Assembly: GCA_900545405.1 (NCBI GenBank)
Contig: UQYT01000001.1
Coordinates: forward strand, 49,219-113,218
Reading direction: 5' to 3'
Source of the DNA: an uncultured Eubacteriales bacterium
GTDB taxonomy: Bacteria; Bacillota; Clostridia; Oscillospirales; Oscillospiraceae
DNA: 64,000 nt
In this document: positions 18,397-55,112 of the stretch, piece by piece
How the letters are laid out: every line of letters starts with the position of its first letter
Position numbering within the stretch: position 1 is the stretch's first letter
Notes under the pieces: model-generated
Databases searched by the model: none
Told to the model about the DNA's origin: nothing
Seen by the model: the letters and a program-made list of their open reading frames with translations, nothing else
Translations under genes and position numbers: made by a program

Positions 18397-19143
18397 ATGA
18401 AAATCACCAGATGCATAACCGCGCTTGCGCTTGCGCTGCTGATGATCGCCGCCCTTGCGGCCTGCGGCAGCAGCTCTAACGACCCCGCCTCACCGAGCGA
18501 GGAGGTCATAGGCGACGTGGCCTCCAGCGCCGCGCCCAGCGAGAGCCCCGAGGCCTCGGAAGAGCCCGAGGAAACTTCGGAGCCCACACCTACGCCCACT
18601 CCCACTCCGACGCCGACCCCGGCGCCCACGGCGCAGCCCACTCCGGCGCCGACGCCCACTCCCACAACCTCTGCGCAGCCCTCCGAGCAGCCTTCGGAGC
18701 CCAGCGAGGCGCCCGTCTCCCCCTCCGCGCAGCCCAGCGAGGAGCCGTCCTCCGGCAGCGTTGACCTCAGCAATTTCTTCAGCACCGTGACCTCCACTTA
18801 CGAGTTTGCATCCCTCTCTGACCTCGACAGCACGATGCTGGACAACTACTACCCCGGCCTGACTGCGATCTCCACCCTTCAGCTCATCGCCAAGATGCCC
18901 ATGATAAGCGCCTCCGGCCATGAGATAATCCTCATCCAGTGCGAGAATTCCGACGACGTTGCGACCGTGCAGAGCATACTCGAGGCCCGCAAGCAGGCCC
19001 AGGTCGACGGCGGCGCCTGGTATCCCGAGACCACCGCACTCTGGGAGAAAGCCGAGATCTGCGTCTCCGGCAACTATCTGATGCTCGTCTCGCACGAGAA
19101 CGCCGCTGACATAGCCGCCAGCTTCTACGCACTCTTTGCCTGA
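18397..19143 (+). CDS. Secreted lipoprotein with a Pro/Thr/Ser/Glu-rich low-complexity linker and a C-terminal globular domain (possibly DUF4358-like).
   Basis: Lipobox LMIAALAACGSS. A (PT)n/(PS) linker of about 90 aa. The C-terminal domain carries a conserved ILIQCENSDD block. Confidence 0.7.
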   Translation: MKITRCITALALALLMIAALAACGSSSNDPASPSEEVIGDVASSAAPSESPEASEEPEETSEPTPTPTPTPTPTPAPTAQPTPAPTPTPTTSAQPSEQPSEPSEAPVSPSAQPSEEPSSGSVDLSNFFSTVTSTYEFASLSDLDSTMLDNYYPGLTAISTLQLIAKMPMISASGHEIILIQCENSDDVATVQSILEARKQAQVDGGAWYPETTALWEKAEICVSGNYLMLVSHENAADIAASFYALFA

Positions 19144-19174
19144 TAAAATCTGACAGCCCGGAGGGACGCCGCCG

Positions 19175-20572
19175 ATGGTCTTTTCCAGCATACTGTTCAT
19201 GTTCATATATCTGCCCGTGGTGCTGTTTCTGTATTACATCTCCCCGGTCAGATGGCGCAATCCCATACTCTTCGTCGCAAACCTCGTTTTTTACGGCTGG
19301 GGCGAGCCTGTTTTCATCGTCCTCATGCTGTTTTCCATCACGATAAACTACATCAACGGCCTGCTCATAGGCCGCTGGAGGCTCACGCAGCAGAAGAAGG
19401 CCAAGACCGTCCTCGTCATCAACGTGGTCATCAACCTGGCCCTGCTCGGCTTTTTCAAGTACTACGACCTCATCGCCGAGACGCTTAGCCTCCTGCCGTT
19501 TATCGACATCAAGCCGCTGGGCATCGCCCTGCCGATAGGCATCTCGTTCTATACCTTCCAGACGATGTCCTACCCGATAGACGTCTACCGCGGCGACACG
19601 GACGTGCAGCGCAACTATATCAGCTTCGGCACCTTTGTCGCGCTCTTCCCGCAGCTCATCGCGGGCCCCATCGTGCGCTACAAGGACGTTGCGGACCAGC
19701 TCGGCTTCCGTGCCAGCAGCATTGACCAGTTCTCCTCCGGCGTCGAGCGCTTCATGGTCGGCGTGGCGAAGAAGGTGCTCATCGCAAACAGCCTCGGCAA
19801 GCTCTGGGACTACTACGCCGCCATCCCCGACGGCGGGCTCACCGTTCTCGGCTCCTGGCTGGGCATCATAGCCTTTACGCTGCAAATCTACTTCGACTTC
19901 TCCGGTTACTCGGACATGGCCATCGGCCTCGGCCGCATGATAGGCTTTGAGTTCAAGGAGAACTTCAATTACCCCTACATTTCCAGGAGCGTCACGGAGT
20001 TCTGGCGGCGCTGGCACATGTCGCTCGGCACCTGGTTCCGCGACTATGTCTACATCCCCCTCGGCGGCAACCGCTGCGGACGTGCGAGGCAGCTGCTGAA
20101 CATCCTCATCGTCTGGGCGCTCACCGGCATATGGCACGGCGCGAACTGGACCTTCCTGCTCTGGGGACTCTATTATGCGGTGTTTTTGATGATTGAGAAG
20201 GTGTTTTTGCTCAAAAGGCTCGAAAAACTGCCGGTTTTGGGCCATATCTACACCATTATCATTGTCATGTTCGGCTGGGTCATGTTCCAGCTCGACAGCC
20301 TCGCCGCCATCGGCAACTACACCAGCGCGATGCTCGGCTTCGGCGCGTCCGGGCTGGCGGAGTCCACGGACCTCTACTATCTCGGCAGCTATGCCGTGAC
20401 CTTTGTCATAGCCATCGTCGCCTCTACGCCCCTGGGCAGCCGGCTCTTCGCCAAGCTCCCGGGCAAGGTCAGGCGTTTTGCAGCCCCGGCGCTTATCGTG
20501 CTTGCACTGGTGCTGTGCACCGCGTATCTGGTGGACGCGACGTACAATCCGTTCATCTACTTCAACTTCTAA
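19175..20572 (+). CDS. MBOAT-family membrane O-acyltransferase (AlgI/DltB/PatA-like).
   Basis: Multi-pass membrane protein. Conserved His region WRRWHMSLGTWFRDYVYIPLGG is typical of MBOAT. Confidence 0.9.
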   Translation: MVFSSILFMFIYLPVVLFLYYISPVRWRNPILFVANLVFYGWGEPVFIVLMLFSITINYINGLLIGRWRLTQQKKAKTVLVINVVINLALLGFFKYYDLIAETLSLLPFIDIKPLGIALPIGISFYTFQTMSYPIDVYRGDTDVQRNYISFGTFVALFPQLIAGPIVRYKDVADQLGFRASSIDQFSSGVERFMVGVAKKVLIANSLGKLWDYYAAIPDGGLTVLGSWLGIIAFTLQIYFDFSGYSDMAIGLGRMIGFEFKENFNYPYISRSVTEFWRRWHMSLGTWFRDYVYIPLGGNRCGRARQLLNILIVWALTGIWHGANWTFLLWGLYYAVFLMIEKVFLLKRLEKLPVLGHIYTIIIVMFGWVMFQLDSLAAIGNYTSAMLGFGASGLAESTDLYYLGSYAVTFVIAIVASTPLGSRLFAKLPGKVRRFAAPALIVLALVLCTAYLVDATYNPFIYFNF

Positions 20573-20584
20573 GGAGGGCCCGGC

Positions 20585-21709
20585 ATGAACAAAAAAGCAC
20601 TGTGGGCCGAAGCCCTTATCTTCCTCGCCTTTATCGGAGCGTTCTTCATCCTGAACCTCGTGCTGCCCGACCGCCAGTTCTCCGAGCAGGAGAACCGCTA
20701 TCTCCAGATGCGGCCCGAGTTCAGCTTCAAGAGCCTCTTCAGCGGCGACTATACGTCCAAATTTGAGACCTACACCACCGACCAGTTCACCTTCCGCGAC
20801 GAGTGGATAACCCTCAAGGCCGCCAGCGAGCTGGCCCTCGGCAAGCAGGAGAACAACGACGTGCACCTCTGCGAGAACGGCACGCTCATCGAAGGTTTCA
20901 AGCGGCCCGAGAACTCCGTGCTCGACTCCAACATGTCGGCGCTCAACACGCTGGTCGGGAACACGGACGCCGACGTCTACTTCGCACTCATCCCCGATAA
21001 ATCCGACCTCTACGCCTCCCTCCTGCCGAAAAATGCGCCGAATGACAGCGAAAAAGAGGTCATTGACTACTGCTACGGCCAGTCCAACGCCACCAACGTG
21101 GACATGTACTCGGCGCTCAGCGCGCACAAGGATGAGTACATCTTCTACCGCACCGACCACCACTGGACCAGCCTCGGCGCGTACTACGGCCTCTCCGCAC
21201 TGGCCGAGAGCATGGGCCTCCCCTGCCCCGCGCTGGACTCCTACACCGACCGCCACGTCGTCTCCGAGGAGTTTTACGGCACGACCTGGTCGTCCTCCGG
21301 CTTCTCCTGGGTGGACCCGGACACGATGGAGATCTTCGTGAACGCGCCCGAGAACCTCAAGGTCACGAGCTATCCGCAGGGCAGCCCGGTCGAGGGCAAG
21401 CTCTACGACTTCAGCTTCCTTGAGAAGAAGGACAAATACTCCATGTTCATGGGCGGCAACTGCCCGATGCACGTCATCGAGACCGGCAACGAGGACAAGC
21501 CCAGCCTGCTCATCCTCCGCGACAGCTACACTGACAGCCTCATCCCCTTCCTGCTCGACGACTTCTCCGAGATCCACGTCCTTGACCTGCGCTACTACCG
21601 CGCCAGCCTGAAGGCGTATATAGAGCAGAACGATTTTGACAACGTACTCGTCTGCTACAGCGTCTCAAATTTCTGCTCGGACTCGAATATATTCCTCTTG
21701 GGTATGTGA
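20585..21709 (+). CDS. DHHW-family protein, the usual periplasmic/extracytoplasmic partner of MBOAT acyltransferases (AlgJ/AlgX/DltD-like SGNH fold).
   Basis: N-terminal transmembrane anchor. DHHW motif in YRTDHHWTSLGAYYG. Located immediately downstream of the MBOAT gene. Confidence 0.8.
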   Translation: MNKKALWAEALIFLAFIGAFFILNLVLPDRQFSEQENRYLQMRPEFSFKSLFSGDYTSKFETYTTDQFTFRDEWITLKAASELALGKQENNDVHLCENGTLIEGFKRPENSVLDSNMSALNTLVGNTDADVYFALIPDKSDLYASLLPKNAPNDSEKEVIDYCYGQSNATNVDMYSALSAHKDEYIFYRTDHHWTSLGAYYGLSALAESMGLPCPALDSYTDRHVVSEEFYGTTWSSSGFSWVDPDTMEIFVNAPENLKVTSYPQGSPVEGKLYDFSFLEKKDKYSMFMGGNCPMHVIETGNEDKPSLLILRDSYTDSLIPFLLDDFSEIHVLDLRYYRASLKAYIEQNDFDNVLVCYSVSNFCSDSNIFLLGM

Positions 21710-21736: not shown

Positions 21737-21780
21737 CAAAAAAGCAGCCGTCCAAACGGACGGCTGCTTTGCTTTTATTC
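21737..21780. terminator. Bidirectional Rho-independent terminator between the convergent DHHW and P-type ATPase-like genes.
   Basis: Stem AAAGCAGCCGTCC-aaac-GGACGGCTGCTTT with an A-run before and TTTTATT after. Confidence 0.65.
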
Positions 21781-21783
21781 GGT

Positions 21784-23763
21784 TCAGCGTGCCTCGTGCT
21801 TGCCCTTGGGCTGCCTTATCTCGCCGTTAAAGGCGAGGATGGAGACGAGGGCCGCGCCGACGGTGGCGATGCAGTCTATAAAGACCGAGAACCACAGCGT
21901 GGAGAAGCCGAAGCCGGCGAGCAGCATCAGCACCACCTTCACAATGGCGGAGCCGCCTATGACAGCGGTGGAGAGCATCTTCGCATAGCGCGAAACGGCA
22001 ATGGCGAGGGAAATCTTGTCCACCCTGCCGCCGAAGACGGTGATATCCGTGCCGACGGGCATGGTCAGTGCTTCGACGCCGGTCATGGCGATGTCGATAT
22101 CCGCCGCGGTGTGCGAGCCGCCGAAGGTCTCGCCGCTGCCCACAAAGGTGAGCTCGCGTCCAGGGACGCAGCCGTCCTTGACCTCGGCCAGCGTGGAGCG
22201 CATCTTCTCACGGTCGCACTCGGAGTAATACTCGGGAATGCCGAGCGCCGAGGCGGCGCGGGCCGCGGAGTCGCGGCTCTCGTCCGTGAACATGATGACG
22301 CTGTCAATGCCGCAGGCCTTGAGCTCCTTGACGCCGTCTGCGGCGTCGGCACGGAGCTGGTCGGTCATGACGATGCGTCCGGCGTACTCGTCGCCGATGG
22401 AGATATAATAGGAGAAGTCGTCCGAGATGTCCGCATCCGGGACAGAGACGCCCTTCACCATCATCAGATCTCGGCTGCCTACGCAGATGCGGATGCCGTC
22501 TACCTTGACCTCCACCCCGCTGCCGGGGATCTCGACGAAGTTCTCGATGAGGTCGATATAGATGGTGTCGCCATAGCAGGCGATGACAGAGCGCGCCTGA
22601 GGCGTGTTGGAATACGCCAGAGCGTGGGCCGCGATCTTGAGCAGGACGTCCGGCTCCATGCGCTCGGACTTGATAGCCACGACCTTGGGGCTGCCCTCGC
22701 TGAGGGTTCCGGCCTTGTCGAAGGCCACCGTGCCGGTGTCGGCTACTGTGTCCATGGCGTTGCAGCCGTCAAAGAGCACACCGCTCTTGGCCGCGCCGGA
22801 CATGGCGCACAGCCGGATAAGCGGCAGCGCAACGTTCAGCACGCTGGGGCTGGCAAGAACCAGAAGCATGGCCGCGCGGCGCACGGATTCCTGGATGGTG
22901 ATGTCGAATATCAGAGGCAGCAGCACCAGGACGAGAATGGCGACGACCGTAACTATCGGCGTGAGGTAGGTCTGTATCCAGACGAAGGACTTGGGAACCA
23001 CCTCTCCCCTCTTGGCGCCGTTCTCGACGGCGGCGAAGAGCGCCGCGGCGGCGGAATCCGCGGAGGTCGAGGTGACCTCGCAGCGGAGCTCGCCGTTCTG
23101 GTTTATGCAGCCGGAGAGTATCTCGTCGCCCTCCTTCACCAGTACGGCGCCTGAGTAGTCGCCGAGCGGAGAGCGGTCGAGGCTGGCATTGCCCTCGAGC
23201 ACGATGCAGTCGCAGGGCACGCGCTCACCGGAGTGGATGACTATCGTCTCGCCGACCTCTATCGTGTCGGCGGGGACGGTCTCCTCCTCCCCGTCGCGCA
23301 CAACGTGCGCGTCGTCCGGCTCGCAGTATATCTGGTCGAGCACGGTGCGGTAGGTGCGTATGTAGGCGTACTCGACGAACAGGCAGCCGATCTGATACAG
23401 CAGCACCAGCGCCGTGCCCTCAACGGCGAAGCCGAAGATGAGTGCGAGGATGACCGACAGCGTGATCAGGACCGTCTTGTCGAGATACCGGCCGCGCAGC
23501 ACGCTCAGCACCGCGCCGGCTGCGATATCCCAGCCGGCGACGAGCACCGAGACGATAAGCAAAACAACGGGCCAGGGCTCCGGTATGGAGCGCACGAGCA
23601 GGGCCACCGCAAACGCGGCGCAGGAGACGATGAGCCTTACTATAAAGACGATGTCCAGCTCAAGCTCGTCCGAACCGCCGGGGCCGCCGCTGGCGCCGGA
23701 ACAGACGCCGGAGCAGCTGTAACGCCTCCCGACGGACTTTTCGAGGATTTCGGTAAAGTTCAT
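21784..23763 (-). CDS. P1B-type (heavy-metal) ATPase homologue with degenerate catalytic motifs. Putative pseudo-ATPase. Co-transcribed downstream of fba.
   Basis: 659 aa with the 8-TM P-type topology and a DKAGTL phosphorylation loop. However, the TM6 CPC metal site reads SPS (LASPSVL), the hinge GDGxND reads GSGETF, the N-domain HP reads TP, and there is no N-terminal HMA domain. Strong AAGGAGGGGG RBS. Confidence 0.75.
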   Translation of the reverse strand: MNFTEILEKSVGRRYSCSGVCSGASGGPGGSDELELDIVFIVRLIVSCAAFAVALLVRSIPEPWPVVLLIVSVLVAGWDIAAGAVLSVLRGRYLDKTVLITLSVILALIFGFAVEGTALVLLYQIGCLFVEYAYIRTYRTVLDQIYCEPDDAHVVRDGEEETVPADTIEVGETIVIHSGERVPCDCIVLEGNASLDRSPLGDYSGAVLVKEGDEILSGCINQNGELRCEVTSTSADSAAAALFAAVENGAKRGEVVPKSFVWIQTYLTPIVTVVAILVLVLLPLIFDITIQESVRRAAMLLVLASPSVLNVALPLIRLCAMSGAAKSGVLFDGCNAMDTVADTGTVAFDKAGTLSEGSPKVVAIKSERMEPDVLLKIAAHALAYSNTPQARSVIACYGDTIYIDLIENFVEIPGSGVEVKVDGIRICVGSRDLMMVKGVSVPDADISDDFSYYISIGDEYAGRIVMTDQLRADAADGVKELKACGIDSVIMFTDESRDSAARAASALGIPEYYSECDREKMRSTLAEVKDGCVPGRELTFVGSGETFGGSHTAADIDIAMTGVEALTMPVGTDITVFGGRVDKISLAIAVSRYAKMLSTAVIGGSAIVKVVLMLLAGFGFSTLWFSVFIDCIATVGAALVSILAFNGEIRQPKGKHEAR

Positions 23764-23805
23764 CGAACCCCCTCCTTAAAACTTGGGATCAGCGCCGGGC
23801 AGAGC

Positions 23806-24744
23806 TTAGTCGGCCTTGCCGTCGCAGCCGAGGACGTCGACGATCTTGTGGGCGACCATTTCCTTGATGGCGGCGCGGGCGGGCTTCAGGTACTGACGGG
23901 GATCGAAGTCGGCCGGATGCTCGGCGAAGTACTTGCGGATGGTGGCGGTCATGGCGAGACGCAGGTCGGAGTCGATGTTGATCTTGCAGACGGCGCTGCG
24001 GGCGGCCTGACGGAGCTGATCCTCGGGCACGCCGATGGCGCCGGGCATGTTGCCGCCGTACTTGTTGATCTCATCGACGAACTGCTGAGGTACGGAGGAG
24101 GCGCCGTGCAGGACTATCGGGAAGCCGGGCAGGTTCTTCTCAACGGCCTCGAGCACGTCGAAGCGGAGCTGCGGCTTGGTGCCGGGCTTGAACTTGTAGG
24201 CGCCGTGGCTGGTGCCGATGGCGATGGCCAGGGAGTCGCAGCCGGTGCGGGAGACGAACTCCTGGACCTCTTCGGGGCGGGTGTAGGAGGCGTGGCCTTC
24301 CTCGACCTTGACCTCGTCCTCGATGCCGGCCAGAGTGCCCAGCTCGGCCTCGACAACGACGCCGTGGTCGTGGGCGTACTCGACGACCTGCTTGGTGATG
24401 GCGATGTTCTCCTCGAAGGGCTTGGAGCTGGCGTCTATCATGACGGAGGTGAAACCGCCGTCTATGCAGCTCTTGCAGAGCTCAAAGCTGTCGCCATGGT
24501 CGAGATGCAGGCAGATGGGCAGGTTGGTCTCGATGACGGCGGCCTCAACGAGCTTCATGAGGTAAGTATGGTTAGCGTAGGCGCGGGCGCCCTTGGAGAC
24601 CTGGAGGATGAGCGGTGCGCGCAGCTCAGCGGCGGCTTCGGTTATGCCCTGGACGATCTCCATGTTGTTCACGTTGAACGCGCCAATGGCGTACCCACCG
24701 TCGTAGGCTTTGCGGAACATTTCCTTGGATGTTACGAGGCTCAT
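23806..24744 (-). CDS. fba: Fructose-1,6-bisphosphate aldolase, class II.
   Basis: Close match to class II FBA: motifs AFNVNNME, HLDHG, zinc ligands, and GTSHGAYKF. Confidence 0.95.
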   Translation of the reverse strand: MSLVTSKEMFRKAYDGGYAIGAFNVNNMEIVQGITEAAAELRAPLILQVSKGARAYANHTYLMKLVEAAVIETNLPICLHLDHGDSFELCKSCIDGGFTSVMIDASSKPFEENIAITKQVVEYAHDHGVVVEAELGTLAGIEDEVKVEEGHASYTRPEEVQEFVSRTGCDSLAIAIGTSHGAYKFKPGTKPQLRFDVLEAVEKNLPGFPIVLHGASSVPQQFVDEINKYGGNMPGAIGVPEDQLRQAARSAVCKINIDSDLRLAMTATIRKYFAEHPADFDPRQYLKPARAAIKEMVAHKIVDVLGCDGKAD

Positions 24745-24808
24745 AAAAATTATCTCCTTTGCAAGCGGTAAATTTATGCTATTGCTTATTTATTATATCC
24801 CAAACGTG

Positions 24809-24817
24809 TGATATAAT
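24809..24817 (+). promoter_or_regulatory. Extended -10 element TGaTATAAT upstream of pfk.
   Basis: Read in the fba/pfk divergent intergenic region. The -35 is weak. Confidence 0.3.
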
Positions 24818-24852
24818 CAATAACACCTTTTTAAGATTTTGGAGGTAACAGT

Positions 24853-26228: not shown

Positions 26229-26678
26229 TTGGAAAACACTAACATGCAGGCCACCTGCACCTATAAACAGGGCAGCCTGCCTGGATGCGCCCCGCTTGCT
26301 CTTGCGCAGATCCCGGCGCAACAGAGCAGCGAGCCGGCCTATAAGAGCGGCGAGGCGCTCTCCCGCGGCACGCTTTTCCCGGGCCTCGATCTGCCCTTCA
26401 AGAACATCGTCAACCAGATGCCCGCCGAGACCACCGAGCTGCGCGAGCTCATGGCGCTCGACTTCGTCACGGCGGAGCTGAATCTCTATCTCGATACACA
26501 TTCCAGCGACACTCAGGCGTTCCAGACCCTGCAGTCCTTCCTGAAGATGTACGAGGAGGGCCGCAAGGAGTACGTCGCCCGCTTCGGCCCGCTCAGCCTC
26601 TCCGATCTGGCCACGGCCAAGAGCTACACCTGGCTCAACGACCCCTGGCCCTGGGACTATGTGAGTAAGGAGGGCTGA
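26229..26678 (+). CDS. cotJB: Spore coat peptide assembly protein. Apparent CotJA-CotJB fusion.
   Basis: The N-terminal half carries a CotJA-like motif (LALAQIPAQQ...YKSGEALSRGTLFPGLDLPF). The C-terminal half carries CotJB-like motifs (DFVTAELNLYLDTH, DPWPWDY). It sits directly upstream of cotJC. Confidence 0.6.
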   Translation: MENTNMQATCTYKQGSLPGCAPLALAQIPAQQSSEPAYKSGEALSRGTLFPGLDLPFKNIVNQMPAETTELRELMALDFVTAELNLYLDTHSSDTQAFQTLQSFLKMYEEGRKEYVARFGPLSLSDLATAKSYTWLNDPWPWDYVSKEG

Positions 26679-26680
26679 AC

Positions 26681-27277
26681 ATGTTCGTATATGAGAAGAA
26701 ACTGCAGTACCCCGTAAAGATCAAAAACACCAACCCTGCCCTCGCCAAGTTCATCATCAGCCAATACGGAGGCCCGGATGGGGAGCTGGGGGCGTCGCTG
26801 CGCTACCTCAGCCAGCGCTATTCCATGCCCAGTCCTGAGCTCAAGGGGCTGCTGACCGATATCGGTACCGAGGAGCTGGGACACCTTGAGATGATCGGCG
26901 CAATCGTCCACCAGCTCACGCGCAACATGACGCCCGAGCAGATCAAAAAGGCCGGATACGAGGCCTACTTCGTGGACCACACGGCCGGCGTCTACCCCAC
27001 TGCCGCCTCCGGCGCACCCTGGAATGCCGCAGGCATCGGCGTCAAGGGCGACGTTCTCGCCGACCTCTCCGAGGATATGGCCGCCGAGCAGAAGGCCCGC
27101 GTCACCTACGACAACATCCTGCGCCTGTGCGACGACCCCGACGTCAGCGACATCATCCGCTTCCTGCGCGAGCGGGAGGTCATCCACTACCAGCGCTTCG
27201 GCGAGGCCCTGCGCATCGCCTCCGAGAAGCTCGACCAGAAGAACGTGTACGCCATCAATCCCGCCTTCGATAAGTGA
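26681..27277 (+). CDS. cotJC: Spore coat protein CotJC (manganese-catalase/ferritin-like family).
   Basis: Di-metal ligand pattern ELGHLEMIGA, plus conserved blocks LRYLSQRY and EREVIHYQRF. Confidence 0.85.
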   Translation: MFVYEKKLQYPVKIKNTNPALAKFIISQYGGPDGELGASLRYLSQRYSMPSPELKGLLTDIGTEELGHLEMIGAIVHQLTRNMTPEQIKKAGYEAYFVDHTAGVYPTAASGAPWNAAGIGVKGDVLADLSEDMAAEQKARVTYDNILRLCDDPDVSDIIRFLREREVIHYQRFGEALRIASEKLDQKNVYAINPAFDK

Positions 27278-39188: not shown

Positions 39189-40877
39189 TTAGGTTTTATC
39201 AGCAGCTCGCAAAATGACCACCTGATATGGAGCAAGAATCAGACGCTCGCTGCTGTGCCAATCGGAATCCGGCACATTAGTCAAAATGAGTTCTGCTTTG
39301 CTTAGGTCCATGGGGAGCGATCTATTTGCTTTAACTTCACTGAAATTTGCCGCTATAAACCATGTTTCCCCTTCAAAATGCTTATAATATGCGAATATCT
39401 CCTTGTCTTCCGGCCAGATCAGCTCGACCTCTCCGTAAGGCATTATTGGATTGTCCTTGCGCAAGGCTATAAGCTTTTTATAGAAGTAGAAAACTGAGTC
39501 AGGGTCAGCGAGAGCCTTTTCCACGTTTATCTCTGGATAATCAGGGTTAAGCATTATCCATGGTGTTCCGCTGGTAAAGCCTCCATTTTTGCTGCCGTTC
39601 CAAGGCATAGGTGTTCTTGCGTTATCGCGGGCTTTGCGATGTATAGCGTCCCACATAAACTCCTCACCTGCACCAGTCCTGCGGCAGTTTTCTGCAAAAG
39701 TCAGGCTCTCTATGTCCCGGAGCTGACTTACGTCGGTCCAGGGCACGTTGACCATACCTAGTTCCTCGCCTTGGTAGACAAACGGCGTGCCGCGCAGAGT
39801 ATGCAAAACTGCTGCCAGCATTTTGGCGCATCTCATTCGATACTTGCCCGTTGTTCCAAAGCGAGACAGCGCTCTCGGCTGATCCTGATTCGACCAGAAC
39901 AGACCCAGCCAGCCGTCTTTGAGCTCCTTCTGCCACCTTGTGAGCCTTTCTTTGAGTTCAGGCAGCTCCCAAGGTCGGTAATACCATTTGCCAAGGGCCT
40001 GTCCATCCATGTCGATGTGCTCGAATGAAAACACGGCATCCAGCTCTCGCTTAGCTCCGGCTGTATACCTTTTGCCCTGCTCGGTACTGAGTGCGATACA
40101 TTCACCGACAGTGAAAATATCCTTATCCTTGTATACAGTCTCCGCCATCTCCTGAAGATATTCATGGATGGGATCAACGTCGCAGATATGTTCTACAGGA
40201 AAAACGTACCCGTTCATATCCGTCGGTCCAGAGGCATCCGGCAGTCCATCGGTCTTGCAAAGCAAATTAATTACGTCCATTCTGAAACCGTCGGCTCCCT
40301 TGTCCAGCCACCAGGTCATCATGTCGTATACGTCTTTTCGGACATTTGGATTGTGCCAGTTCAGGTCAGGCTGCTTTTTTGAGAAGAGATGAAGATAGTA
40401 CTCCCCTGTATGCTGATCATATTCCCACGCAGACGGAGTAAAGAACGAGGCCCAGTTGTTTGGCTCATGCCCATCTTTGCCCTCTGCCCAGATGTAGTAA
40501 TCTCGCTTGGGGTCATCCTTGCTGCTGCGGGAGCTTATAAACCACGGATGCTCGTCGGAGGTGTGGTTTACAACCAGATCCACAAGGATCTTTATTCCCC
40601 GTGAGTGCAGCTTGTCTCTGAGTTCCTCCCAGTCCTCCATGGTGCCGAAAATGTCCAGTATCTTCTGGTAGTCAGAAATATCGTACCCCATGTCATCGCC
40701 GGGAGACTCAAACACCGGCCCCAGCCATATGCCTCCGATGCCCAGGTCAGCAAGGTAATCGACCCTGTCGATGATGCCGCGCAGGTCACCTATGCCGTCG
40801 CCGTTCGAGTCTTGGAAGCTCCGTGGATATATCTGATAGAATACACACTCTTTCCACCAACGCCTTTCGAGCTCCAT
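39189..40877 (-). CDS. GH13 alpha-glucosidase (oligo-1,6-glucosidase / sucrose-isomaltase-like).
   Basis: Catalytic regions DLVVNHTSDEH, GFRMDVINL, EW and FSNQDQPR. Start set at the second Met, which has a GAGGTG RBS. Confidence 0.85.
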   Translation of the reverse strand: MELERRWWKECVFYQIYPRSFQDSNGDGIGDLRGIIDRVDYLADLGIGGIWLGPVFESPGDDMGYDISDYQKILDIFGTMEDWEELRDKLHSRGIKILVDLVVNHTSDEHPWFISSRSSKDDPKRDYYIWAEGKDGHEPNNWASFFTPSAWEYDQHTGEYYLHLFSKKQPDLNWHNPNVRKDVYDMMTWWLDKGADGFRMDVINLLCKTDGLPDASGPTDMNGYVFPVEHICDVDPIHEYLQEMAETVYKDKDIFTVGECIALSTEQGKRYTAGAKRELDAVFSFEHIDMDGQALGKWYYRPWELPELKERLTRWQKELKDGWLGLFWSNQDQPRALSRFGTTGKYRMRCAKMLAAVLHTLRGTPFVYQGEELGMVNVPWTDVSQLRDIESLTFAENCRRTGAGEEFMWDAIHRKARDNARTPMPWNGSKNGGFTSGTPWIMLNPDYPEINVEKALADPDSVFYFYKKLIALRKDNPIMPYGEVELIWPEDKEIFAYYKHFEGETWFIAANFSEVKANRSLPMDLSKAELILTNVPDSDWHSSERLILAPYQVVILRAADKT

Positions 40878-40887
40878 GCACTGCACC

Positions 40888-41934
40888 TCACTTTAGTATG
40901 ATCTCACGGCCTGCTGAAGCCGAGGCGTACATTGCACCTATGATACGCTGAACCTTGTAGCAATTCTCTGCGGAGGTTATTGGGATCTCGCCTTTTTGCA
41001 CGCAGTCTACAAAGTGCTGTATTTCGTTTCGGAAACCTTCCTTCCACGCGTCGTCTCTAACGAACAGGGGCGTAATATCTGCGCAATAGCCTTCTTCCTG
41101 ACCATAAATCACAAATGGATTGAGACTTGCTCCCTCCTTAGTCCCATATACCTTGAGATTAAAGTCCTCTTCCGGCCCATTTATTGCCCAGCTGACTGTC
41201 ACAGTCATGCTTTTTCCCTCGGCGAAGCGGACAAGCGCCACGGCAGTTTCCTCAACGTCCATGGGCCTGTCGGCAGGAGCCTCTGTGCCCCAGCTGCTCA
41301 GGCCTTTTGCCTTTGCATCTCCGAGACGGCTGTGTGTCACCGCGCTCACGGCGATCGGTTCAGGGCAGCCCATTAGGTACCAGGCGGTATCGATGGCGTG
41401 AACGCCGATATCAATGCCGGCACCGCCGCCTGAGAGAGACTTCTGCACAAACCAGCCGTTCGATGGGATACCGCGCCGTCTTATCCAGCGAACATCGGCG
41501 TGATAAATGTCACCCATCTTTCCCTGAGTCCGGCGCTCATTTATAAACATTGTCTCTGTCCTGAAACGGTTGAGCATACCCAGCATGAACGTCACACCGT
41601 TTTTCTGAGTCTCATCAAGGATCTCTTTTGCTTCAGCTTCGCTTGCTGCCATTGGCTTTTCAAGAAATATATTCTTCCCTGCCCTGGCGGCCTTCACTGC
41701 CATCTGGCAGTGAAGGTCGGTTCGCGTGCAGATTGATACGGCATCTATGTCTCCATGCCGAAGCAGTTCGTCGTAGTCAGAAAACGGCTCAGCGCCGACA
41801 GCATCTGCCAGAGCTTTCGCTTTCTCAGGTTTCCTGTCATATATTGCTGCTATTTTTACTCCGTCACACGCCTGAAAAGCGGGAATGTGAAACGTCTTGG
41901 CAACGAGTCCTGCGCCTATTATTGCAACTTTCAT
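40888..41934 (-). CDS. Gfo/Idh/MocA-family NAD(P)-dependent oxidoreductase (1 of 3).
   Basis: Rossmann motif KVAIIGAGLVAKTFH, EKP motif and the C-terminal GFO alpha/beta domain. Confidence 0.85.
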   Translation of the reverse strand: MKVAIIGAGLVAKTFHIPAFQACDGVKIAAIYDRKPEKAKALADAVGAEPFSDYDELLRHGDIDAVSICTRTDLHCQMAVKAARAGKNIFLEKPMAASEAEAKEILDETQKNGVTFMLGMLNRFRTETMFINERRTQGKMGDIYHADVRWIRRRGIPSNGWFVQKSLSGGGAGIDIGVHAIDTAWYLMGCPEPIAVSAVTHSRLGDAKAKGLSSWGTEAPADRPMDVEETAVALVRFAEGKSMTVTVSWAINGPEEDFNLKVYGTKEGASLNPFVIYGQEEGYCADITPLFVRDDAWKEGFRNEIQHFVDCVQKGEIPITSAENCYKVQRIIGAMYASASAGREIILK

Positions 41935-41947
41935 AGTTTACTCCACA

Positions 41948-42976
41948 TCAAAGGATCTCACTGAGCTGCACAACTCTCTTCTCTTTTGCGGAGAGCAGAA
42001 CTGCGGCCGCAATGGCAAGACTGTTGAGGTTGTCCTCAAGCGTTGGCAGGTCAGTCTGCTCACCGCCCAGGGCAAGATGCAGATCGTGCAGCACACCTTT
42101 ACGGTCTGTGCCCGGAAACTCACCGCATCCCAGCTCTGGTATTTTACCTGGGTCATCCGCTGCGGGGCTTATGTCCAGCCCCTTGCCGGAGAGCCATGTG
42201 ACAAGGCCCTTGCTGCATTGTATCTGCCAGTTACCTTGAAATTCCGTGGGCGCGCCGACAGAACTCATATGGCTGGAAAACTGCACCTTTGCGTCGTTTT
42301 CAAACTCTATCGTTATAAACAGCGACTCAGGCCCGCGTGTCACCGCCCACTCCGGGTTCCAGCCCAGAGCATATACGGATTTGGCATTCGAGCGAGTGAG
42401 AAACCTGAACATGTCAAAGTGGTGTATGCACACCTCATATATCTGCATGCAAACCTGTTTGCCGCGCCAACCCTGTATGTTCCAGATGTGCTCCTTGGGG
42501 TCGGTCGTCATGCCTGCGCGATAGTCAAGCTCGATAAACTCAAGCTCTCCTAACCCGCCGCCCTCTATGCCGCTCCGGACGCGCCATAGTTCCTCGCGGT
42601 AGCGGTAATTGTGACTCACGAATACGCGTTCTTTTCTGCCGCGCATCCACATTGCAAACTCCTTTGCCTCATCCATGTCGTCGCACAAAGGTTTTTCAAT
42701 GAGAACGTTCTTCCCCGCCTCGACGGCCTTTTTGGCAAACTCGATATGCGCATAGTGAGGCATCACGATTATCACAAGGTCGGCATCAAGTTTAAGCGCC
42801 TCGTCATAATCGGTGAAGCATGCCGAATCAGGAAGAGCCCACTTCTCTTTGGCTTTTGCCAAGGTTTCCTCTGTTCTCACGACAAGTGCTGTGAGTTCAA
42901 AGTTAGGGTCATCTCGTAGATACTGTACCCAGCTCTCTCCCCAGTAGCCGTAACCCACCTGTATTACTTTGATCAT
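41948..42976 (-). CDS. Gfo/Idh/MocA-family oxidoreductase (2 of 3).
   Basis: Motifs IKVIQVGYGYWG and NVLIEKPL; C-terminal GFO domain. Confidence 0.85.
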   Translation of the reverse strand: MIKVIQVGYGYWGESWVQYLRDDPNFELTALVVRTEETLAKAKEKWALPDSACFTDYDEALKLDADLVIIVMPHYAHIEFAKKAVEAGKNVLIEKPLCDDMDEAKEFAMWMRGRKERVFVSHNYRYREELWRVRSGIEGGGLGELEFIELDYRAGMTTDPKEHIWNIQGWRGKQVCMQIYEVCIHHFDMFRFLTRSNAKSVYALGWNPEWAVTRGPESLFITIEFENDAKVQFSSHMSSVGAPTEFQGNWQIQCSKGLVTWLSGKGLDISPAADDPGKIPELGCGEFPGTDRKGVLHDLHLALGGEQTDLPTLEDNLNSLAIAAAVLLSAKEKRVVQLSEIL

Positions 42977-43002
42977 TGCGTACTCCTTTCAGTGCGCAGC
43001 CA

Positions 43003-44154
43003 TTACAGCTCTTCCAGCGGTATGGGCTCAAAGCTGGTCTTGAGATCAATGGCTCTGCCGGTCCTTGCAGACTCATAGGCAGCTCCGATGATCTCGATTA
43101 CATGTCTCGCGTGCTCAGCAGTGCCGTAGGCAGGCTTACCGCCCTGTGCCCACTCGGAGAGCTGATTTATGTCCTCGAATATGTGGGACTCGCCAAGCGT
43201 GACCTGATGGTCATTCAGGTGCGGGAGGCCCATATTGGCACGAACAAAATTAAGATCGAGTTTAGTCGGGTCATAGAGCTGTATCTCGCCGTTCTTGCCA
43301 ACGATCTTGCCATCCATAATGCGGCCCTCGGTGCCGAATGTGATCGTTCCAAAGCCGTTATAGTTTCCAAAGTCGCCCTTGAGAGAGGTATATACTACTC
43401 CGTAGAAAGCATCGCCAAAGTCCAGGATCATCTGAGTGGAGTCGTCAACCTCGGACTGGATCACCCCGCCGTCATACTCAAATTCCTTTACCCTCTGGCC
43501 GGAAAAAGCAGTGACTCTCTTTGCAGGCCCGTATATGCCGGTCATGGCATGGAGCGCATAAACAGTGCAGTCCCAGATGGGCCCGCCAGCGGGCAGACGG
43601 AAGTACCAGGTCGGGTCTATTTTCTCCATGCCGTTGCCAAAGTCACGGTTGGGCTGCCAGCAGTGCCAATAGAGAACGCCCTCGGAACCGCCTATTGTCC
43701 AGCTGGGGATTCCTATCTCGCCTGTTAGGATGGCTTTACGCATTCGCCTGAGTGCGGGAGAGGTCATCTGGCCGGGAGAAGATACGAGCTTTACGCCGTA
43801 CTTTTCAGCCTCTTCTATCATTTCCGTTGCCTCTTCGGCAGTAAGGCACATGGTCTTGTTGAAGTGGACATGCTTTCCTGCACGAATTGCCTTCATTCCC
43901 TGCTCAAAATGGACGCCGATGGGAGATGCAAGAGTAACCAGCTCAACATTCGGATCGGCCAGCATCTCGTCGTAGTCCTCATAGTATTTGGGAACATTAA
44001 ACTTTTCTGCAATGTACTTCGCGCGCCCGGGGACGGGGTCCATTACCGCCGCTGTATAGACGAGCTCGCACTCATCGGGAAAAACCGTGTGCTGGCAGAC
44101 GGACTGTATGCCGGTGGAACCACAGCCGGCAACACCGATACCCATTTTTTTCAT
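43003..44154 (-). CDS. Gfo/Idh/MocA-family oxidoreductase (3 of 3). Longer form resembling NAD-dependent glycoside-oxidising enzymes.
   Basis: Motifs MGIGVAGCGSTG and GKHVHFNKTM; 383 aa. Confidence 0.85.
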   Translation of the reverse strand: MKKMGIGVAGCGSTGIQSVCQHTVFPDECELVYTAAVMDPVPGRAKYIAEKFNVPKYYEDYDEMLADPNVELVTLASPIGVHFEQGMKAIRAGKHVHFNKTMCLTAEEATEMIEEAEKYGVKLVSSPGQMTSPALRRMRKAILTGEIGIPSWTIGGSEGVLYWHCWQPNRDFGNGMEKIDPTWYFRLPAGGPIWDCTVYALHAMTGIYGPAKRVTAFSGQRVKEFEYDGGVIQSEVDDSTQMILDFGDAFYGVVYTSLKGDFGNYNGFGTITFGTEGRIMDGKIVGKNGEIQLYDPTKLDLNFVRANMGLPHLNDHQVTLGESHIFEDINQLSEWAQGGKPAYGTAEHARHVIEIIGAAYESARTGRAIDLKTSFEPIPLEEL

Positions 44155-44172
44155 TTATAAAACCCTCCGATC

Positions 44173-45159
44173 TCAGTACTTTTCAACCAGCTTCTGCATA
44201 AAGCTGACAAACTGACGTGTGCATTTTCTGTCGAACTCGTGCATTTCTTCAAGGCAGTTATAGTGCTGCTCAGGGAGTATAAATGCAGGCTCGGCCATGA
44301 GTATCATATTTTCCTTGCGCTTGGCCTTCTCGCATATGGCCTTCATTATCACGTCAAAGTCCATGATGCCTTCGCCAAGGCAGCAGCCCTTGAAAATCAT
44401 GGGCATATCCTGCCACAGATGCTCGAAAACCGGATTGTTTATAACCTTGAAATCCTTGAAGTGCGCAGCAACGGCCCAGGGCGCCAGATAGTCCACATCC
44501 GCCATCGGGTCGCAGCATATTACAGCGCCGTTCCCTATGTCAAACATTCCGCCGATGTTGGGGTGATCTATATCCTCAAGTATCTCGGCGATTTCTTTGC
44601 CCGTGAAATCACAGTGATTTTCATAGGCCATCATGATATCCGTACCTTCAAGCGCCTTGCCGAGCTCCAGCATATTCGCCTTGACAAATGCCTTGACTTC
44701 GTTGAAGCTGACGTCTTTGTTGTATCTGCTGTACTTGACCTCGAGCTTCCCATAGCCTCCTCCAAGCGTGTTGGCCCCGAAAATCTGGCATATTTCAATT
44801 ATTTTATCAAGGTATTTCCTTGCCGCCGCCGGCTCCATGCCCATTTCACCCGTGACAGGATGCTTGAGTCCGGCCAGGCTGAAAGCGGGAATGCAATACA
44901 CCACGAAGTGCACGTCGGCTTCTTTTGCCAGGGCGGCCATCTCCCTGACATAGCCCATATCGGAGAATTCAAGGTAACCAGCGTCGTACTTTTCGCCTTC
45001 CGGTATTTTGGCCACCGGCATCATCGAAAGCGAGTGCGCGTCCATGCGCTTGCACTCCTCGATATACCAGACGAAAGACTCCCTACCGGGTTTAAGGCTT
45101 TCAGGGCACCTGTTTGCAAATTGCTGAAAACCAATTTTAAAATTGAAACTGTTATTCAT
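44173..45159 (-). CDS. Sugar phosphate isomerase/epimerase (xylose-isomerase-like TIM barrel).
   Basis: AP_endonuc_2/XylA-like TIM barrel with a metal-ligand pattern E...D...H...E. 328 aa. Confidence 0.8.
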   Translation of the reverse strand: MNNSFNFKIGFQQFANRCPESLKPGRESFVWYIEECKRMDAHSLSMMPVAKIPEGEKYDAGYLEFSDMGYVREMAALAKEADVHFVVYCIPAFSLAGLKHPVTGEMGMEPAAARKYLDKIIEICQIFGANTLGGGYGKLEVKYSRYNKDVSFNEVKAFVKANMLELGKALEGTDIMMAYENHCDFTGKEIAEILEDIDHPNIGGMFDIGNGAVICCDPMADVDYLAPWAVAAHFKDFKVINNPVFEHLWQDMPMIFKGCCLGEGIMDFDVIMKAICEKAKRKENMILMAEPAFILPEQHYNCLEEMHEFDRKCTRQFVSFMQKLVEKY

Positions 45160-45196
45160 AATAATAGGATCCTCCTTTTTGCTGCTGAAAGGAAGC

Positions 45197-46039
45197 TCAA
45201 CCCTTCACAGCACCTGAAACCGTCATGGCTCTCTCCACCTGCGAACTGAACAGAGTGTAAACTAGCACAGTGGGAATGCTGGCGATGACCATCGTTGCGC
45301 CCATGGCACCCCAGTCAGTCGTATATTCTCCCTGGAAGAAGAGCAGACCCAACGGCAGTGTCTTCAGCTCCTCGCGAGTCAGCAGGATGAGCGCCAGATT
45401 ATACTCGTTCCAAACGCTCATGAATATGAAAATTGAAACTGTCGCTATGGCTGACTTTACATTTGGAACAATTACCCTGAGAAAACAGGTTAATATTGAC
45501 GCACCATCTATGCAGGCTGATTCCTCAAGCTCAAACGGCAGGCTGCGCATATAGCCGTAGAGAACCATTATTGAAAACGAAAGGTTAAATGCAGTGTAAG
45601 GTACTATGACAGCCCAAAGGGTATTGTTTATGTGCAGGTCTCGCACGAGTACGGCTATGGGAATCATGATGCACTGCAGCGGCAGGAACAGGCCAATGAG
45701 CGTGAGCATACGGAGAAAACTCTGGCCCTTGAAGCGCATCCTGGCAGTTGCATAGGCAAACATGGTAGCGAATACAACAACGAAAATTATGACCGCAGCG
45801 GTAACTTTTACGCTGTTGAAGAAGTAAGTCGGCAGGTTGAATGTGTTCCATGCCTTGGCATAGTTTTCTACCCTGAGAACAGTCGGAGGACCAAATGGGT
45901 TAGTTGCAAATATCTCGAGGTTGTCCTTAAAGGAATAGAACAGCATCCATATTAGAGGGTACAGGTTTATGACCGCGTAGATATAGAGGATCACCTTAAA
46001 TAATAAGGTCCCAACTGTCAGTTTCTTGTGATGTCTCAT
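45197..46039 (-). CDS. Carbohydrate ABC transporter permease (MalG-like).
   Basis: EAA motif ESACIDGASILTCFLRVIVP. Six transmembrane segments. Confidence 0.85.
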   Translation of the reverse strand: MRHHKKLTVGTLLFKVILYIYAVINLYPLIWMLFYSFKDNLEIFATNPFGPPTVLRVENYAKAWNTFNLPTYFFNSVKVTAAVIIFVVVFATMFAYATARMRFKGQSFLRMLTLIGLFLPLQCIMIPIAVLVRDLHINNTLWAVIVPYTAFNLSFSIMVLYGYMRSLPFELEESACIDGASILTCFLRVIVPNVKSAIATVSIFIFMSVWNEYNLALILLTREELKTLPLGLLFFQGEYTTDWGAMGATMVIASIPTVLVYTLFSSQVERAMTVSGAVKG

Positions 46040-46055
46040 TCTGCGCAGCCCCTTG

Positions 46056-46937
46056 TCAGTAAACTATGCGCTCTCGCGCTACCAGTCTGTTTATAATGAT
46101 GGACACTATGAGGCACTGGACGACCAGCATAACAGCCGAAGTACAGCCATAGCCATAGTTGCCTATCTTGAAAGCTGAACGGTACATAAGGTAAGTCAGC
46201 GTATAAGTGGCAGTGCCAGGACCGCCGCCGGTCATTATGTTCATGCTGGCAAAAGCGTTAAGACCGCCGGTTATAGCAATTATAAGGCAGTACTTGTATG
46301 TCTCCTGCATGAGCGGCATGGTTATCTTTATGTGTGCCTGCATTTTGGTGCAGCCGTCGATTCGGGCGGCCTCGAAATAGTGGTCGGGAATCGAGTTTGC
46401 AGCAGACAAGAGCAAAATAAACTGATAACCCGTGAACTGCCAGATGTTGACCATGGCTATGGCTATTATTGCAGCATGCTCATCACCAAGCCAGTTTTGC
46501 CTGTACGAGATGCCCAGTACTTCAAACAGCTTGTTTATAAGACCGTTGTCAGCATTATACATAGAGAGCCAGAGCTGCGAAACAACTGTGATGGAGAGGA
46601 CTGCGGGTATGTAATAGGAGATCCTGAAAAACTTCTTTTCTATTTTTCCGGAGTGCTTAACCGCAAAAGCCAGCACAGTTGCAATTGGTATCTGAATGCA
46701 GGCCTGTAATGCCGCAAATATTAGGCCATTTTTTAGGCCGGTGTAGAATATCGGGTCTTTGAAAAGCCTGATATAGTTGCTAATCCCGTTGAATTTAGCC
46801 GGATTTAATCCATCCCATTGAGTAAAGCTGTGTACTACCAGCACAAACATGGGATACAGGACCATAACCGTTATGAGTATCATGGTGGGAGCAATGAGGA
46901 AGATTATGACCCGCTTATTCCCAAGATACTTTTTCAT
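46056..46937 (-). CDS. Carbohydrate ABC transporter permease (MalF-like).
   Basis: EAA motif EAARIDGCTKMQAHIKITMP. Start set at MKKYLG, which has an AAAGGGG RBS. Confidence 0.85.
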   Translation of the reverse strand: MKKYLGNKRVIIFLIAPTMILITVMVLYPMFVLVVHSFTQWDGLNPAKFNGISNYIRLFKDPIFYTGLKNGLIFAALQACIQIPIATVLAFAVKHSGKIEKKFFRISYYIPAVLSITVVSQLWLSMYNADNGLINKLFEVLGISYRQNWLGDEHAAIIAIAMVNIWQFTGYQFILLLSAANSIPDHYFEAARIDGCTKMQAHIKITMPLMQETYKYCLIIAITGGLNAFASMNIMTGGGPGTATYTLTYLMYRSAFKIGNYGYGCTSAVMLVVQCLIVSIIINRLVARERIVY

Positions 46938-47015
46938 GGAATGGACACCCCTTTCCCTATCCATAAGGAGAGGCCATGCGGCCTCTCCTTAAGATTTGGT
47001 CGAAAATCTGCTTTC

Positions 47016-48353: not shown

Positions 48354-48602
48354 TCTCCTCTGCTCCTCAATTTATGAATTTCATACGGTTGTATGATACA
48401 ATTAGCATAGAGTAATAAGGCATAGATGTACATGGAATTTGCGAATATGTCTTGGAAAAAACGAACCTAATTTCTCGTATATTGTATAATTTGTGAAAAT
48501 ACTAAAATTTATAGTCTTGCAATTATGCATATAAACAATTTTGAGCAAAAATCTGATTTGCTATATTAAATGTGTATCTACTACATCTTCATTGTATTTA
48601 TG

Positions 48603-48631
48603 TTGACAAGCAATTATCAATACATTATCAT
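48603..48631 (+). promoter_or_regulatory. Strong sigma-A-like promoter candidate: -35 TTGACA, 17-nt spacer, -10 TATCAT. Upstream of the deoC-like/GH2 operon in an AT-rich 350-bp control region.
   Basis: Read from the sequence. The region is much more AT-rich than any coding sequence in the window. Confidence 0.4.
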
Positions 48632-48708
48632 ACAACTAGTGCCAGCCGAGGTGACAACTTTGTCTGACTCAATACAAGAAAGGAGCATGCATCCTTCGCG
48701 GTGTAGCA

Positions 48709-52507
<3,799 letters not shown>

Positions 52508-52533
52508 TACGTCAGACACGGGAGTGTTACAGT

Positions 52534-53313: not shown

Positions 53314-53340
53314 CTGGAACTAAACTGAAGGAGGAGGGGC

Positions 53341-55083: not shown

Positions 55084-55112
55084 TCATATCAGCGGTCAGG
55101 CGGTGTTAACAT

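Follow-up and report, generated by a model that had tools for sequence, protein, structure and literature searches.

What becomes of an ion pump when the residues that drive the pumping are lost and the fold is kept? This question is raised by a gene in a 64,000-nt stretch of DNA from an uncultured Eubacteriales bacterium (contig UQYT01000001.1, positions 49,219 to 113,218; the window hereafter means this whole stretch), in which a minus-strand open reading frame (ORF) at 21784-23763, with an ATG start and 659 codons, encodes a 659-aa homologue of heavy-metal (P1B-type) ATPases, located directly behind fba, the gene of a class II fructose-bisphosphate aldolase (FBA). A first-pass annotation had described the product, here called the pseudo-ATPase, as a P1B homologue deprived of nearly all its catalytic signatures. 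The core of that claim is borne out: the degeneracy shared by orthologues, purifying selection and a high-confidence predicted fold make it very probable that the protein is a conserved, non-catalytic pseudo-pump. The overall explanation that we consider best, and reasonably probable, is that of a pseudo-P-type ATPase derived from Zn/Cd-type (P1B-2, CadA/ZntA-like) pumps, which would have kept the complete fold and lost the ATP-driven phosphorylation cycle.

Is the protein still a P-type ATPase in structural terms? Pfam recognizes an E1-E2_ATPase domain (PF00122, aa 149-326, 1.7e-29) and a HAD-like Hydrolase domain (PF00702, aa 345-519, 1.5e-12), and the closest solved structure is ZntA (4umv, E=2.2e-45), with residues 47-636 of the query aligned to ZntA 134-720, so that the end-to-end alignment asserted earlier holds, as homology to ZntA/CadA-type P1B-2 pumps. 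The second-closest solved relative is sCoaT (7QBZ, P1B-4, E=3.9e-37). Among NCBIfam models, the top match is TIGR01525 (heavy-metal P1B), with 285.8 bits for a cut-off of 346.25, and the scores of TIGR01512 (232.9 vs 313.5) and of the two ZntA models next in rank (193.1 vs 1240 for the ZntA model) are likewise below threshold. The sole cut-off passed is that of the generic P-type model TIGR01494 (78.3 vs 62.3), which is why orthologues are labelled 'HAD-IC family P-type ATPase', and neither library, as scanned here, contains a curated model specific to the family. An AlphaFold2 model built from an 85-sequence alignment of degenerate and canonical proteins has a mean predicted local distance difference test score (pLDDT) of 90.1 and a predicted template modelling score (pTM) of 0.86, with disorder limited to aa 16-32 (pLDDT <50) and the last seven residues. 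It displays the eight transmembrane (TM) helices expected from the first annotation, as long helices at the MA, MB and M1-M6 positions, together with the actuator (A), phosphorylation (P) and nucleotide-binding (N) domains. Its top global Foldseek matches are E1-state, inward-open P1B pumps (7r0g, TM-score 0.79; ATP7B E1, 0.75-0.77), and it is more distant from ZntA in the E2P/E2.Pi states (0.45-0.49). With its TM bundle and its A, HAD-like P and N domains all in place, the pseudo-ATPase clearly belongs, in structural terms, to the P-type ATPase superfamily.

Motifs were read from a HMMER pairwise alignment with ZntA and from independent MAFFT multiple sequence alignments (MSAs), and the codons were read directly in the DNA for SPS, DKAGT and GSGETF. 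The gene and its parts, from the N-terminus of the protein onwards, are as follows.

21784..23763, minus strand: coding sequence of the pseudo-ATPase, P1B-2-derived, 659 aa (ORF; Pfam, NCBIfam and PDB homology; AlphaFold2 model)
23656..23763, minus strand: N-terminal extension, aa 1-36, a short helix (aa 3-11) followed by a Cys-rich stub (AlphaFold2)
23329..23655, minus strand: TM helices MA, MB, M1 and M2, aa 37-145, including E115 (AlphaFold2)
22993..23328, minus strand: A domain, aa 146-257 (Pfam E1-E2_ATPase, ZntA alignment)
22786..22992, minus strand: TM helices M3-M4, aa 258-326, in which the CPC site has become SPS (alignments, codons)
22666..22785, minus strand: P-domain, first half (aa 327-366), containing D-K-A-G-T (alignments)
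22354..22665, minus strand: former nucleotide-binding (N) domain, aa 367-470 (nonsynonymous divergence, entropy, block identity)
22021..22353, minus strand: second half of the P-domain, aa 471-581 (alignments)
21814..22020, minus strand: TM helices M5-M6, aa 582-650, with K609 and D630 (MSAs)

The substitutions reported earlier were upheld, and further ones emerged. The CPC metal site reads S305-P-S307 (22843-22851) and lies in TM4, where only the Pro is retained. The Mg-binding hinge GDGxNDxP, noted as VGSGETFGG, is replaced by G542-S-G-E-T-F-G-G according to the ZntA alignment, the MSAs and the codons (aa 542-547, 22123-22140), and the HP dipeptide of the N-domain is indeed T387-P388 (22600-22605). 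The A-domain had rightly been recognized as present; its fold is there, but the loss of its catalytic TGES loop had been overlooked, the LTGES of ZntA pairing with L-G-D-Y-S (aa 200-204, 23152-23166). The alignments also revealed that TGD has become T493-D-E (aa 493-495; the MxTGD region reads MFTDE), of which only the Thr/Ser position survives in the family, and that the adenine-binding Glu of P1B N-domains is L382, in a position where the canonical P1B set has Glu at 1.00, as it has the His at 1.00. DKTGT is preserved in part, as D349-K-A-G-T (aa 349-353, 22705-22719), with the Asp kept and the third residue changed from T to A. Also kept are K520, the Lys of the P-domain, and the GxG of the N-domain (G414/G416); a family motif, H-T-A-A-D, is found at aa 551-555. 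Misalignment of the motifs, considered as an artefactual explanation, is rejected by the ZntA HMMER alignment, three MAFFT MSAs and the direct reading of codons.

Charged residues of the membrane domain are kept: the entry-site Glu of M2, E115, corresponds to ZntA E202 in a gap-free alignment, TM5 K609 (21937-21939) to ZntA K693, and TM6 D630 (21874-21876) to ZntA D714. For K609 the MSAs were preferred, since a 4-residue gap in the HMMER pairwise alignment pairs ZntA K693 with S605, while all MSAs give K609; this Lys is one of only three invariant columns in the 85-sequence alignment, and for D630 conservation is 90% or higher when degenerate and canonical sequences are taken together. The Gly that completes the DxG begun by the TM6 Asp and the Asn at +10 are lost in the family. 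Of the marks of P1B-2 pumps, the TM5 Lys and the TM6 Asp are present, and CPC and above-threshold scores for the curated families are absent; of those of catalytic competence, TGES, GDGxNDxP and MxTGD are missing, and so is the E...SxHP signature by which P1B N-domains are known. At the N-terminus, the Cys-rich stub YSCSGVCSG (aa 15-23, 23695-23721) is real and predicted to be disordered; it is FSCSGGCCG-like in many orthologues and missing in two subclades. Its description as a reduced metal-binding domain (MBD), on the other hand, was an assumption, because the closest canonical pumps have no N-terminal MBD.

Could this simply be a gene in decay, recently inactivated? About 56 full-length homologues (640-670 aa, 34-99% identity) retrieved from 5.8 billion proteins all lack the same motifs, and canonical pumps with SCPC, TGES, DKTGT and GDGIND first appear at ~32% identity in that search. 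A scan of one genome per species found the family in 25 species-level genomes, namely Candidatus Scatomorpha spp. and other uncultured Oscillospiraceae/Eubacteriales of chicken and human gut. Motifs were counted in the window protein and in 27 other genomes in which the gene is linked to fba (28 sequences in total, the orthologues being 24-96% identical to the window protein). TGE, GDGxND, HP and the N-domain Glu occur in none of the 28, and the phospho-Asp, which the first-pass annotation had singled out as the surviving signature, is present in the window protein but not conserved in the family, being replaced by Ser, Asn or Ala in 14 of the 28. The TM4 Pro is kept in 25/28 with variable flanks (SPS, SPC, NPC, DPC, SPV, SPL and others), whereas K609, D/E630 and E/D115 are each found in 28/28. 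SPS itself is confined to the window and its 96%-identical relative, an orthologue at 93% identity reading SPC; as judged from these sequences, it is a very recent state.

Such a late loss of the last TM4 Cys would suit a decaying gene, as would an evolutionary rate exceeding that of the neighbours (70% identity where fba is at 97%, pfk at 94% and the adjacent DHHW gene at 88%). However, all 27 other genomes carry intact frames, which measure 634-665 aa except in L036 (719 aa, through ORF extension) and L013 (568 aa, a form without A-domain). Pairwise Nei-Gojobori estimates of the ratio of nonsynonymous to synonymous substitution rates (dN/dS, or omega) come to 0.062, 0.048, 0.16 and 0.18 in the four closest pairs, with a range of 0.16-0.20 over the third to fifth, and are of the same order as those of the DHHW gene. 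The GC content at third codon positions (GC3) is 0.86 and matches that of host genes, the ribosome-binding site (RBS) is strong and conserved, the predicted fold is of high confidence, and the degeneracy is older than divergence to <30% identity. Neither disrupted frames across orthologues nor an omega near 1 was seen; with intact orthologues that share and extend the degeneracy at an omega of 0.05-0.2, the pseudogene explanation is rejected and is scarcely credible. The sequence comparisons indicate instead that the pseudo-ATPase is clearly maintained by purifying selection despite its faster evolution, and it combines the features by which pseudoenzymes are recognized in practice: homology to an enzyme, lost catalytic residues and purifying selection.

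Might the protein then still pump, driven by ATP through non-canonical residues? D349, K350, T493, K520 and the N-domain GxG are kept and the predicted fold is intact. Against this, none of the 28 sequences has the Mg-coordinating Asp/Asn/Asp of the hinge, the TGES Glu or the adenine-binding Glu/His, half of the family has replaced the phospho-Asp, and close relatives have no A-domain; to our knowledge, the lost residues are indispensable in every characterised P-type ATPase. An active pump is therefore very improbable, and the non-canonical pump and pseudogene explanations can both be regarded as essentially excluded. The Post-Albers chemistry appears to be missing, as the Mg hinge, the TGES Glu and the adenine-binding residues are gone, along with the phospho-Asp often and the actuator sometimes.

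If catalysis is lost, what is selection acting on? The family and canonical sets differ in depth, so that column entropies were compared only as rankings of domains. Among the cytosolic domains of canonical relatives, variation is greatest in the N-domain (2.08 bits), and the strongest conservation in these pumps is that of TM1-2/TM3-4 (1.15). The ranking is inverted in the family, where conservation peaks in the N-domain (1.22) and is lowest in the second half of the P-domain and in the A-domain. At twenty positions of the N-domain, conservation reaches at least 90% in the family alone (for example K376, H380, Y384, Y397, E418, D445 and Y460), and the N-domain has the lowest nonsynonymous divergence (dN) of all domains in 8/8 pairwise comparisons. 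Its block aa 373-430, which corresponds to the elements forming the adenine pocket in P1B pumps, is 57% identical to the protein of a deep branch (L041) with which overall identity is 28%. Constraint has shifted to the former nucleotide-binding domain and to the charged membrane triad E115, K609 and D630, and we infer from that on the N-domain that the former nucleotide pocket may have been retuned rather than abandoned.

The deep branches of the family retain both elements. The L041/L042 branch (634 aa) reads TGS and HSAADLD, and has SAL where pumps have CPC and SAEGT where they have DKTGT. In another branch (543-592 aa; P0092/L013, L098, L099, L102, L112, L119, L120), encoded directly downstream of fba, the whole A-domain is reduced to a short linker, and Pfam fails to recognize some of the proteins. 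In both branches the TM triad and the N-domain block are preserved, and a cytoplasm-facing binding site would fit the loss of the A-domain more easily than gated transport.

The genomic context of the gene is made up of the following elements.

23806..24744, minus strand: fba, class II fructose-bisphosphate aldolase, upstream gene of a putative operon (ORF; PF01116 in orthologous loci)
23764..23805, minus strand: spacer between fba and the pseudo-ATPase gene, 42 nt, terminator-free (sequence, terminator scan, RNA fold)
23771..23777, minus strand: Shine-Dalgarno sequence AAGGAGG, 7 nt upstream of the ATG (sequence; conserved in the closest orthologues)
24792..24820, minus strand: TTGATT-17-TATAAT upstream of fba, candidate for a sigma-70-like promoter (identified by its 10/12 match to the consensus alone)
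21741..21770, no strand assigned: bidirectional intrinsic terminator with a 13-bp stem, ending the fba/pseudo-ATPase unit and the convergent DHHW gene

The strong RBS and the position 42 nt downstream of fba, both stated in the first annotation, were found as described; the distance counts from the fba stop codon, and the two genes share a strand. A terminator or structured element between the two genes is rejected for the window, since the scan detected no terminator-like hairpin in the spacer and the RNA fold of the junction (z = +0.96) is no better than that of shuffled sequences; co-transcription of fba and the pseudo-ATPase gene in this genome is a plausible and reasonable proposal. In every family locus with enough flanking sequence, fba lies directly upstream on the same strand, and this extends to the two deep branches described above, from which the DHHW cluster is missing through loss. 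How general is the association from the side of fba? Eighty metagenomic fba orthologues were fetched (77-97% identity), 59 of them with at least 1.5 kb downstream, and a P-type-like gene follows in only 7 of the 59, the rest having a putative pyruvate kinase gene (in several cases) or other genes there, which weakens the idea of an obligatory partnership with FBA.

Two variations of this junction were observed in relatives. A sister subclade (L025, L027, L028, L031, L035) has a longer fba spacer of 90-125 nt with GC-rich hairpins, suggestive of attenuation or of a partial decoupling of the pseudo-ATPase from fba, and an ACACCCG-like conserved element just 5' of the RBS, without counterpart in the window, that could be an attenuator, a partial terminator or a separate promoter. 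In sister lineages (L103-L106, L108 and L117) whose fba is 84-86% identical, a 579-aa ORF (601 aa in L117, through ORF extension) follows fba and reads, from its sequence, as a putative pyruvate kinase with a C-terminal extension resembling phosphoenolpyruvate utilisers; different genes thus fill the slot behind fba by lineage.

The link to fba bears on an alternative role, that of a passive cation conduit, in which the gates would be disabled and the membrane domain (M4 Pro kink, E115, K609, D630) would act as a divalent channel or uniporter that might supply or buffer metal for the aldolase encoded upstream. Class II FBA is a divalent-metal enzyme, its gene is a conserved neighbour, and the sole pump-specific transport residues that the family keeps are the charged TM triad and the TM4 Pro, to which many orthologues add one TM4 Cys (xPC) and the N-terminal Cys cluster. 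Yet the SPS of the window protein and the SPV/SPL of a subclade without N-terminal Cys rule out thiophilic metal binding as the conserved function, the greatest constraint is on the cytosolic N-domain and not on the membrane domain, the AlphaFold2 model is inward-open only, and most fba orthologues are without the pseudo-ATPase gene. Such a conduit is, on balance, unlikely.

From which pumps did the family arise? Among active proteins, the nearest to it are CadA-like pumps found in Clostridia, short in length (~611 aa), which are of P1B-2 type since they have SCPC, the TM5 Lys and the TM6 DxG, and which lack an N-terminal MBD. Among the 150 best profile matches in 1.84 billion 50%-identity representatives, about 50 are also degenerate, in various ways; a profile search that included non-core degenerate members was dominated by canonical CadA-like pumps. 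A neighbour-joining tree built from 258 sequences places 117 of the 118 proteins without GDGxND in one clade, with a 107-member subclade free of any canonical pump, but this tree is suggestive only, as long-branch attraction may affect the degenerate clade. Members of this wider CadA-like clade resemble the pseudo-ATPase in the loss of GDGxND and in the N-domain motifs LLKxAAHA, AYGGxI and EYY; unlike it, many keep TGE/TGD, DKTGT and HP, and they have no link to fba. Those that keep these motifs may be partly active. Two members were located outside the fba branch: P0131 (L095 6001-7983) is very degenerate and adjoins RACo/DUF2284 genes rather than fba, and P0133 (L096 5636-7992) keeps TGD, DKTGT and HP, with ASPGAM and SDGLSE, and stands directly behind an ArsR/HTH_5 regulator, a cadC-cadA-like layout. 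This gradation suggests a stepwise decay from a metal-resistance pump, of which the fba-linked branch would be the most derived product.

This ancestry is also relevant to a role as regulatory partner, in which the pseudo-ATPase would assemble into hetero-oligomers with a canonical pump of CadA/ZntA type present in its own cell, and would modulate that pump. Pseudoenzymes often hetero-oligomerise with active paralogues and modulate them, a general pattern that such a role would match, canonical short CadA-like pumps are present in related Oscillospiraceae, and the less degenerate member of the wider clade just mentioned is still located behind its ArsR/CadC-type regulator. No canonical P1B gene, however, is found in the window or adjoining any family member, and the conserved surface is in the N-domain, for which no role as a P1B dimer interface is known. 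We consider this role quite unlikely.

Comparison with known systems underlines how far the family has departed from its relatives. ZntA/CadA-type P1B-2 ATPases are pumps for Zn(II), Cd(II) and Pb(II). Like them (Shigella sonnei ZntA, 4UMV/4UMW; the ~611-aa Clostridia pumps), the pseudo-ATPase has eight TM helices and A, P and N domains homologous from end to end, and shares the TM5 Lys, TM6 Asp, M2 Glu and TM4 Pro. Unlike them, it lacks CPC, TGES, GDGxNDxP, TGD, HP and the N-domain Glu, scores below every P1B cut-off, is located behind fba instead of beside an ArsR/MerR metal regulator, and is most conserved in the N-domain, not in the catalytic core. P1B-4 pumps of the SPC type (sCoaT, 7QBZ) resemble it in the absence of an N-terminal ferredoxin-like MBD and, for many orthologues, in the S/N-P-C of TM4; their catalytic motifs, though, are all intact and the P1B-2 Lys/Asp pair is absent from them, whereas the pseudo-ATPase has kept the pair and appears to have lost catalysis. 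A further parallel, in kind, is with pseudokinases and pseudophosphatases, whose fold is kept, whose catalytic residues are lost, and which are under purifying selection with constraint redistributed to a binding surface, although the pseudo-ATPase differs from them in being a polytopic membrane protein. In the literature searched, a body of 8 million papers, no description was found of a pseudo, inactive or degenerate P-type ATPase family, or of an fba/P-type operon, and what was sought on P1B subgroups and FUPA families likewise gave nothing relevant. According to a 2023 review (PMC10654040), all characterised P-type ATPases are strictly coupled; judging from its motifs, the pseudo-ATPase would work unlike any of them.

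Taken together, these observations lead us to favour a binding or regulatory module over the two alternatives of passive conduction and of regulating an active paralogue, a tentative choice to which we give slightly less than even chances. In the mechanism proposed for this module, the gene would be transcribed from the fba promoter as the second of a two-gene unit, and the protein would reside in the membrane in an E1-like shape open to the cytoplasm. It would act by binding rather than pumping, its remodelled N-domain pocket accepting a new ligand or partner, while the membrane triad would maintain a site for a cation facing the cytoplasm, or else a salt bridge of structural value; the part played by the protein would be in regulation, sensing or scaffolding, and not in transport.

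Several points weigh against this interpretation. The strong conservation of the former nucleotide pocket is equally compatible with a retained, non-hydrolytic binding of nucleotide, and the K609-D630 pair may persist for helix packing alone. The E1-like shape of the model is no evidence of a locked state, and the survival of D349, K350, T493 and K520 of the HAD-type site makes residual phosphotransfer possible. The whole neighbourhood is syntenic among the family genomes, so that the fba linkage may be inherited synteny, and the scarcity of P-type-like genes behind fba orthologues (7/59) points the same way. The hosts, finally, are all uncultured metagenome-assembled genomes, and the evidence consists of sequences and models.

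What surrounds the fba/pseudo-ATPase unit in the window? pfk is divergent from fba, and the DHHW/MBOAT/lipoprotein cluster converges from the other side. The latter, at 18397-21709, is a conserved three-gene cluster converging on the pseudo-ATPase gene, with which it shares the bidirectional terminator, and encodes a lipoprotein whose long linker is rich in Pro/Thr/Ser/Glu (relatives have DUF4358), an MBOAT acyltransferase and a DHHW/ALGX protein; together these probably form a system for O-acylation in the cell envelope. At 26229-27277, a spore-coat pair, CotJA/CotJB-CotJC (Mn-catalase family), adjoins pfk; CotJC is called as a 60-72-aa fragment in several relatives (L003, L005 and L009 loci), which suggests truncation or rearrangement at a site near pfk. 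Further away, genes at 39189-56234 have a GC3 of 0.52-0.68, against 0.8-0.9 elsewhere in the window. They encode a GH13 alpha-amylase-family enzyme, two Gfo/Idh/MocA oxidoreductases, a xylose-isomerase-like TIM-barrel protein, an ABC sugar transporter (two permeases and a binding protein), a DeoC/LacD aldolase, a GntR/UTRA regulator and an AraC-type response regulator, and this block is probably a horizontally acquired carbohydrate-utilisation island.

What, then, would such a family mean? P-type ATPases count among the membrane machines that are understood best. Pushed to its furthest extent, the reading is that a family of pseudoenzymes would here be recognised for the first time among P-type ATPases: it would have radiated long ago within Clostridia (some 100 sequence clusters in the sample) from cadC-cadA-type Zn/Cd pumps, given up the pump cycle and retuned its nucleotide pocket for another ligand or partner, and its fba-linked branch, some members of which lack the actuator domain, would link a membrane or cation signal with central glycolysis (fba/pfk); in this complete form it is speculative, and we hold it at low probability. 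If true, the selection of the fold without its phosphorylation chemistry would reveal other capacities of the P-type scaffold, and structural studies of E1-like states would gain, in the family, a 'motif knock-out' series made by nature. Automatic labels given to these proteins, such as 'HAD-IC family P-type ATPase' and 'Cd2+/Zn2+-exporting ATPase', overstate the metal-export capacity of gut Clostridia, and the link with fba, if functional, would tie glycolysis to the membrane in a way that is new in kind.

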